Assembly: GCA_003427395.1 (NCBI GenBank) | Contig: BFEA01000038.1 | Location: 1,281,792 to 1,345,791 of the forward strand | Source: Chara braunii | Lineage: Eukaryota > Plantae > Charophyceae | Length of the DNA stretch: 64,000 nucleotides | Direction: 5' to 3' | Shown here: piece after piece, positions 50,600 to 51,830 of the stretch | Position numbering within the stretch: the first letter of the stretch is position 1 | Layout: each line of letters begins with the position of its first letter | Translations under genes and position numbers: made by a program | Notes under the pieces: generated by a model | Databases searched by the model: none | What the model was told of the DNA's origin: nothing | The model's input: only the letters and a program-made list of their open reading frames with translations

Positions 50600-51830
50600 A
50601 TCAGCCAACCCAACTTATGGATGTGACTGACCTGCCAGTTTATATGGTTAGGCCACACCAACTTATGGTGCCCTAGTCTGGTAGCACAAATATACGTAGG
50701 GCATAGGACCAAATCACACCAACTTATGGTGTGACCAGTTTCTACCTAGACGATTGACATAAGGCGTATGACCGGGCCGCACCAACTTATGGCAAGGCTG
50801 ATCAACCTGAACGTCGGCATAAACAAAGAACTGGACCACCTCAACTTATGAGGGGTCCAGCCTCTGCCTAAACAAACGACGAAAGGCATATGATCAGAAC
50901 ACAACAACTTATGTTGTGCCCTGGCCAGCCTAAACACTGACATATAGCATAAAACTAGGCTACTCAACTTATGAGTAGTCTAGCCCTGCCTAAACAATAA
51001 CAAGCGCGTGTGGCCGAACAGCCCGCAACTTATGCGTTCGCTCGGCCTCCGCAACACAACTACATCCAATAGGTAGAATCACAATCAAATTTTATCTTCA
51101 GGCGAGTGGTCAGGTCACCCCAACTTATAAGGATCCCCACCCAAACGTCGGTTATGTTTAGAAAAAGAAAATATTCAAACTTTATATACCTCTCTGCTTT
51201 CGTGTTATCAAGGGCATATGACCAACTACCCAACTTATGGATGAGTCAACCTGCCCAAAGTTATCACACCATTTTGTATTGTTCACCTTCCTTCCCTCTG
51301 CCTTGTCTGCTACCGGCTTATATGGCTGGATCTCCCAACTTATGGCGCCCAGCCTGCCATAAATATACATAATAAATAGAGTATCAAAATTGTATACTCC
51401 GATTCTCTTTGTGATGGCGGCTCATGACTTGACCACACCAACTTATGGTGTGAATAGTCTCGCCTGAAACAGTAAAGCATAAGACTGAGCCACACTAACT
51501 TATGGTGTGGTCAGCTTCTGCCTAAACAATCGACGTAAGGCGTATGACCGGGTCCCACCAACTTATGGTGAGATTGGCCAGCCTAAACTTTCGGCATACC
51601 CAAAGAACTGGACCACCTCAACTTATGAGGAGCCCAACCTTTGCCTGAACAAACGACGAAAGACATATGACCAGACACAACAACTTATGTTGTGTCTGGT
51701 CAGCCCATACAGTTACATATGGCGTAGAGTCAGGCTACCCAACTTATGAGTAGTCTAGCCCAGCCTAGACATAATCATATGTGCGAAGAACTGAACAACC
51801 CGCAACTTATGCGTTCGCCCAGCCTCCGCA
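50600..51830 (-). repeat. Array of 18 hairpins with a constant AACTTAT core and variable stems
   Basis: Cores near 50611, 50659, 50720, 50783, 50842, 50905, 50965, 51026, 51121, 51231, 51336, 51439, 51496, 51559, 51619, 51681, 51740 and 51803. Confidence 0.92.

Follow-up and report, generated by a model that had tools for sequence, protein, structure and literature searches.

Eighteen hairpins with a fixed loop and pairing-conserved stems in a 9.5-kb LTR of Chara braunii: candidate docking sites on unspliced genomic RNA

Introduction

The way in which LTR retrotransposons choose their genomic RNA is presented, in the available text of PMC6844567, as poorly known beyond a few models; for BARE, the available part of PMC3735527 describes separate RNA pools. 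A locus of Chara braunii raises this question anew. Within a 64-kb window of repeat-rich DNA (the whole stretch that was analysed), a very long LTR carries 18 hairpins that share one loop on stems of differing sequence. Is this array maintained by selection, which strand of it folds, and what could it be for? No account of this array came up in a literature search, which did not reach the Chara genome paper and its supplements, where an annotation is possible.

The LTR that carries the array

The preliminary description placed the hairpins in an LTR of 9.5 kb, and this assignment holds. The LTR, called here LTR B, has TG...CA termini, and its ends are homologous to those of an LTR of a second family, LTR A (77% over 53 nt and 253 nt), two copies of which lie on either side of it. 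CCGT flanks LTR B on both sides (48409-48412 and 57930-57933). The features concerned are the following.

32093..41162, minus strand: LTR A, 9,070 bp, second family, with the same four-block architecture as LTR B
43869..45909, minus strand: broken gag-like region in three open frames, with a CX2CX4HX4C knuckle in the translation at its 3' end
48403..48412, minus strand: partial match to an initiator-Met primer-binding site, immediately following LTR B and sharing letters with the CCGT duplication
48413..57929, minus strand: LTR B, 9,517 bp, TG...CA, both ends homologous to the LTR A ends
48495..48744, minus strand: conserved U5-end block, matching LTR A 32191-32441 at 77% over 253 nt
49800..49827, minus strand: 8-bp hairpin whose 3' arm ends in acceptor-like CAG/G, 26 of 28 letters as in LTR A 33085-33112
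52040..52100, minus strand: leader hairpin, then donor-like CAG/GUAUAA, matching LTR A 35279-35339 at 82% over 61 nt
56282..56381, minus strand: sequence derived from U6 snRNA, within U3 of LTR B (71 bits against Rfam RF00026, whose gathering score is 44)
58265, minus strand: primer site TGGCGCCG beside the second LTR A copy
58268..64000, minus strand: second LTR A copy, running off the window, 88-93% to the first copy

The sequence GGTATCAG occurs twice in the window when both strands are counted, once beside LTR B and once at the primer site of another element (7745). Because the CCGT duplication overlaps the partial Met primer site, LTR B may either stand as a solo LTR within element A, where it inserted, or belong to a recombinant as its 5' LTR. 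The gag-like region has four relatives, all of them hypothetical proteins of Chara braunii with 54-77% identity. A Pfam search with its three frames gave 0 families, the upstream frame (45220-45909) has no match of its own, and no pol was matched between 41162 and 48413 when the RT and integrase of the window itself served as queries.

The DNA depth of 19-31 at 52354-53640 had prompted another reading of the 9.5 kb, as a short LTR enlarged by insertions. It was not adopted because LTR A shows an equal distance, 5.8 kb, from 5' end to leader. By this depth, segment 52354-53640 is present in one or two copies while its flanks are multi-copy; it may be a fast-changing U3 or a unique insertion. 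A near-terminal palindrome, ATACCCTT-GT-AAGGGTAT, opens both LTR families (41135-41151 and 57905-57921), and a similar stretch is found at 13661-13703.

A predicted intron common to two LTR families

Simple repeats aside, LTR A and LTR B align in four blocks only, namely the 5' end, the leader hairpin with its donor-like site, the acceptor-like hairpin and the U5 end. The second and third blocks delimit a predicted intron, which in LTR B would start at 52043 and end at the acceptor-like site at 49806; the LTR A counterpart of the donor-like site is GAG/GUAUGU. In both families the donor-like and acceptor-like sites are about 2.2 kb apart and a hairpin array lies between them. Further AG/GU and YAG/GU words occur in both LTRs, and only these two sites and one word of the U5 block fall in conserved blocks. 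The stem of the 8-bp hairpin (49800-49827 and 33085-33112) is identical in the two families and the 4-nt loops differ; this hairpin may modulate splicing, or it may be a palindrome at the DNA level.

The arrays of the two families are not alike. Those of LTR A are as follows.

~33650-34700, minus strand: array of the first LTR A copy, two alternating ~60-nt hairpins with a 120-nt period
~59815-60880, minus strand: array of the second LTR A copy, with the same two types of hairpins

The outer stems of the two LTR A unit types differ by two compensatory pairs. Their loops are other than those of LTR B, one of the two types holding UAAG, and a covariance model built from the 18 units of LTR B has no match to the LTR A array. 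Furthermore, the LTR A hairpins have no preference for the element strand: folding is about as good on either strand and in many cases better on the non-element one. Assembly gaps fall within both LTR A arrays.

The 18 units and their core

The array of LTR B and the duplicated block that it contains have these positions.

50590..51840, minus strand: 18-hairpin array with core CAUAAGUUG, loop UAAGU, an inner covarying stem and an outer helix with an asymmetric internal loop
50653..51059, minus strand: units 2-8, first copy of a 7-unit block, 79.6% identical to 51433-51836
51433..51836, minus strand: units 12-18, second copy of the block, duplicate of units 2-8

ACTTAT occurs 27 times on the plus strand of the 64-kb window, and 18 of these occurrences lie within 50613-51805. 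Each is the centre of a unit of about 60 nt. A core recurring roughly every 60 bp had been announced in the preliminary description, and indeed 13 of the 17 intervals measure 48-63 nt, the other four 95-110 nt. The 9-nt core, CAACTTATG on the plus strand and hence CAUAAGUUG on the element (minus) strand, is exact in 16 of the 18 units, which amounts to 160 of 162 letters kept, whereas identity across the 56-nt units averages 63% per column. The two exceptions lie at 51129 and 51496, where RNA reads from other copies have the core letter. Units 2, 9 and 11 show a weak or alternative fold.

When the covariance model was run over the 64-kb window, it recovered the same 18 units, all on the minus strand, with 29-60 bits; beyond them the best match reached only 14 bits. 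An Rfam search over the array gave no family at E up to 5. A metagenome scan for two cores 40-60 nt apart returned at least 121 loci; among the matches listed, none aligns to LTR B (E 0.001), and the best 25 by stem count of these at least 121 loci consist of short repeats of coding type or of simple repeats, whose stems have 0-3 pairs.

Pairing and covariation of the stems

All the stems quoted in the preliminary description are present in the sequence, and its claim that the flanks vary from unit to unit while staying complementary was assessed by a strand-neutral alignment of every left arm against every right arm, with permutations as the null. Pairs of arms from the same unit score 20.8, versus 13.6 for non-cognate arms. 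None of 100,000 arm permutations of the 18 units matched the observed mean, and after removal of one duplicate block (two subsets of 11 units) only 0 and 1 of 100,000 did so. These counts, like all those of covariation given below, come from the 18 units of one copy, seven of which are duplicates.

The description of the stems as freely covarying applies from the third pair outward and fails for the two pairs beside the loop, which are fixed (A-U in 18 of 18 units, C-G in 16 of 18). The third pair takes all four Watson-Crick forms, being C-G, U-A, A-U or G-C in different units, and the fourth and fifth pairs swap between A-U and C-G. Further out, a second helix with a bulge on its 3' side recurs among units. 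The stems comprise 15-22 pairs with bulges. In the RNAalifold structure, which was derived from the same 18 units and tested with the kinship among units uncontrolled, 88.9% of 162 cells are paired (0 of 500 shuffles as good; at most 53% with slid partners), with double changes at five of the nine pairs. The array combines a shared loop motif with stems whose pairing is conserved.

Duplication of a block and selection since then

The duplication reported in the preliminary description is real, and its extent is one unit larger than stated: units 2-8, not 3-8, correspond to units 12-18 (79.6% identity over 411 nt). Between the two blocks the core changed at one of 63 sites, versus 72 of 337 elsewhere (p 2.5e-5), the number expected in the core from base and methylation context being 13.6; none of the 35 loop letters changed. 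Stems and spacers diverged at similar rates (51 of 223 versus 21 of 114 sites). Changes that break a pair are nevertheless fewer than expected, with one observed among 76 and 8.1 expected if pairs are defined on block 1 (p 0.0002), and four among 84 with 9.2 expected if they are defined on block 2 (p 0.011). Double changes between blocks were rejected as proof of pairing, three being observed versus 2.1-2.2 by chance, and A-C pairs on the element strand show no depletion since the duplication. Decay after insertion may blur this post-duplication pattern.

Altogether, the arm permutations, the conservation of the core and the depletion of pair-breaking changes support the earlier claim of selection on both loop and pairing. 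The array is real and selected, and its function is what we infer from it. By contrast, the suggestion that stem diversity guards against loss by recombination finds no support, because the seven-unit block has been duplicated and joints in other copies repeat or skip units. DNA contigs show a multi-copy array region, with units repeated or missing in other copies; a joint 50868-51431, from unit-skipping copies, was found in three reads.

Which strand folds

Several measures favour the element strand. Its raw folding energy is better in 15 of the 18 units, its consensus fold reaches -5.58 kcal/mol versus -0.74 for the other strand, and the closing pair forms in 15 of 18 units versus 11 of 18. 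Shuffle z-scores per unit are split, nine of 18 for each strand. The comparison of G-U with A-C pairs proposed in the preliminary description yields the excess that it sought, 46:18 for the element strand (p 0.0003 against 50:50), which loses significance against strand composition (p 0.08-0.31); non-cognate arms also give 67% in this count. G-U asymmetry was therefore rejected as a proof of strand, since it is confounded by an element strand that is G+U-rich outside the array too. Among the variant rows that fall in the array (12 among the 40 listed of 369, plus one from a separate table), seven touch a pair: three restore Watson-Crick pairing, including both core exceptions, three give G-U and one gives A-C on the element strand. 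As energies and consensus point to the element strand while z-scores are split and the G-U count is confounded, the element strand is the likely folding strand, short of proof.

Transcription of the LTR

Nearly all RNA reads come from diverged copies, only 9 of 1,631 and 0 of 237 having at least 99% identity. In the stranded run X13, segment 52032-52225 is covered at depths of 80.5 and 50.3 in one direction versus 0.55 and 0 in the other, a direction that corresponds to element sense provided that the library was of the usual type. On the same condition, the array adjoins, on the downstream side, a leader block that relatives transcribe in sense. Run X12 reads the leader block in both directions. 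A separate search of the runs listed no RNA run that carries the sequence, a result that bears on expression in neither direction.

Past the donor-like site the X13 depth drops to 0.6, which may reflect the divergence of expressed relatives. Among the eight loose-end rows listed at the donor, five keep G/GT at the same offset and three keep G only, as spliced forms might leave. The splice joint 52043-49806 itself is absent among the 1,631 and 237 reads and the 155 and 39 contigs (four joints listed), and among the 15 joints listed of 218 in a separate analysis. RNA over the array is sparse and runs both ways (in X13, bin depths add up to about 5 versus 9). The reads contain no pile-up of molecule starts that would mark a start or poly(A) site, and those of relatives continue past 52170 into unlike sequence. 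At 48493-49700, the X12 reads of relatives that run against the direction of the X13 leader signal have two to three times the depth of the others, a sign of possible antisense transcription from the U5 end.

A proposed function and its alternatives

A fixed loop and fixed closing pairs on a scaffold that merely has to pair are the signature of a protein-binding RNA hairpin. MS2 provides an example in the available text of PMC6281560. On the basis of this pattern, the reading that we put first, and to which we would give an even chance, is that the hairpins serve as multivalent docking sites for one protein on unspliced genomic RNA, for its export or packaging. Transcription would start in the LTR upstream of about 52230, and the 2.2 kb between 52043 and 49806 would be an intron, left out of the mRNA and retained in genomic RNA, its acceptor being partly hidden within its own conserved hairpin. 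The protein would recognise the UAAGU loop, the two closing pairs and perhaps the distal bulge, the remainder of the stem acting as a scaffold only. Unlike stems would let each unit fold locally, and many sites would give avidity and, through it, selectivity. The partner would most likely be a Gag or accessory protein encoded by the element and supplied in trans, given that the gag of this copy is broken and pol is absent, or otherwise a host export factor.

The sorting of unspliced RNA is suggested by the location of the array in the predicted leader intron. Retroviral Psi, which lies downstream of the major splice donor, and export elements of the RRE and CTE types are likewise structured RNA that splicing would remove, and the array resembles them in this placement; they differ from it in consisting of two to four distinct hairpins outside the LTR, whereas here one motif occurs 18 times inside the LTR, in a predicted intron. 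If the array lay in R, hairpins would also stand at the 3' end of spliced RNA, and position alone could therefore not mark unspliced RNA. Dimerisation by kissing loops, another role offered in the preliminary description, is unlikely because UAAGU is not self-complementary, nor is AUAAGUU.

A broader reading is tentative, and we hold it to be possible with the balance against it: a conserved intron within the giant Chara LTRs would hold a swappable, family-specific hairpin array, an RNA address code sorting genomic RNA from mRNA, read by the element's own protein or by U1 through a loop that mimics a donor. Two related families with the same intron frame and different arrays suggest that the signal is replaceable, a point relevant to the way families reserve their machinery for their own use. 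The array also makes the selection of genomic RNA in LTR retrotransposons directly testable: nature has already varied the stems many times while holding the loop constant, as a mutational series would do, and the array names a recognition motif, CAUAAGUUG.

Other explanations place the array at another level. It may act in DNA, the 9-bp core being a tandem-amplified site for an anti-silencing protein of the element or a host transcription factor, in the manner of VANC, with the palindromic flanks as a by-product or an aid to extrusion; we consider this unlikely. According to the available text of PMC5735166, VANC arrays of VANDAL DNA transposons resemble the hairpin array in that a nine-base motif recurs in the same orientation and in dense tandem in non-coding or intronic DNA and is family-specific; the match to VANC21 extends to motif length, single orientation, density, tandem origin and intronic place. 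A short motif in one orientation, densely repeated in tandem in non-coding DNA, is also what the array shows. Moreover, the strand bias is not significant beyond composition, the LTR A array has no element-strand preference, and we infer that a period of 59-63 bp is near six helical turns. However, VANC binds duplex DNA, belongs to DNA transposons and, in the available text of PMC5735166, is reported without flank pairing. A protein that binds the duplex gives no reason for a complementarity of flanks that is specific to each unit and leaves the depletion of pair-breaking changes unexplained. No VANC-like protein was seen, the frame at 45220-45909 being without match.

It is more doubtful still that the loops mimic splice donors. 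In the consensus 5' splice site, positions +2 to +6 read UAAGU, as the loop does, but the indispensable G at +1 is an A here. Such loops would retain U1 snRNP, or another factor that reads donors, without being cut, and splicing would be slowed or early polyadenylation suppressed in the 3.8-kb transcribed part of the LTR. The five-letter match is exact and single-stranded in most units, the array lies just inside the donor-like site, and in foamy viruses LTR polyadenylation is known to be controlled by U1, with RNA structure and a donor internal to the LTR involved (PMC3694450, available part). Yet U1 would be held only weakly by five base pairs in a tight loop, the match was noticed post hoc, the fixed closing pairs stay unexplained and only one of the two loop types of LTR A holds UAAG. 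Foamy viruses share with LTR B a donor-like site inside the LTR: the available part of PMC3694450 describes an internal major splice donor whose reading depends on structure. They have one real donor, whereas LTR B has a donor-like site followed by 18 loops resembling a non-cleavable donor.

A role in reverse transcription, in which the hairpins would act in single-stranded DNA or RNA by pausing, strand transfer or protection and not in transcript sorting, is improbable. The LTR exceeds 9 kb, and with about 3.8 kb from predicted start to primer site the first strand would have unusually far to run. Even so, something would have to read the fixed loop.

Slightly less probable again, and strongly disfavoured, is a neutral origin, in which tandem amplification of a palindromic unit is joined by template switching that carries changes from one arm over to the other. 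The evident duplication of a tandem block, stems that diverge as fast as spacers and double changes between blocks at chance level agree with it, but arm-to-arm copying does not keep constant a loop in which 0 of 35 letters changed, or a core with 1 of 63 against 13.6 expected and with 160 of 162 letters kept over all units.

Least probable of all is a source of hairpin-derived small RNAs, as a liability or as a tool against host genes: stems of 15-22 bulged pairs and a plant-LTR precedent, the maize Sirevirus palindrome region, for which such a role is proposed (PMC4728375, available part), speak for it, but that region keeps its arms and varies its centre while the array does the reverse, and any small-RNA sequence from a fixed loop with varying arms would therefore be scattered.

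Relation to other repeated hairpins

As possible docking sites for one protein, the hairpins come close to the packaging signals of ssRNA viruses (MS2, STNV, HBV), for which the available text of PMC6281560 describes many stem-loops with a common loop motif and variable stems and proposes that they act jointly on one protein. Those signals are dispersed and degenerate and lie in coding genomes, whereas the Chara array is clustered, regular and non-coding, keeps a fixed 9-nt core and lies in a retrotransposon LTR.

The Sirevirus palindrome region likewise consists of repeated hairpin units in a plant LTR, in numbers that vary, also between families. According to the available text of PMC4728375, its arms are conserved, its centre is variable and it occupies the upstream, cis-regulatory half of the LTR, whereas the array has a fixed loop and covarying arms and lies in the downstream part, past sense-transcribed sequence. 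An assignment of the array to this type was rejected, the pattern being reversed, with a fixed centre and arms that vary.

Further observations in the window

Upstream of the array, the U6-derived piece of LTR B (56282-56381) has a diverged 3' end, can fold back and is preceded by a G+C-rich inverted repeat just upstream; the available text of PMC10886601, which deals with small-RNA-derived LTR elements, has 0 occurrences of 'U6 snRNA'. A 37-nt piece at 53950-53986 is common to a very abundant and highly expressed repeat (DNA depth sum about 100,000; RNA contig depth about 14,600).

In LTR A, the first copy has a poly(T) run flanked by the arms of a long inverted repeat (37530-37806), which is absent from the second copy and has kin at 24978-25113; it is probably a small inserted element. 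A chromovirus-type Ty3/gypsy element occupies about 6700-17740 on the plus strand, with gag, RT, integrase and chromodomain frames; its LTRs are 95-97% identical and its Met primer site, at 7744, is complete.
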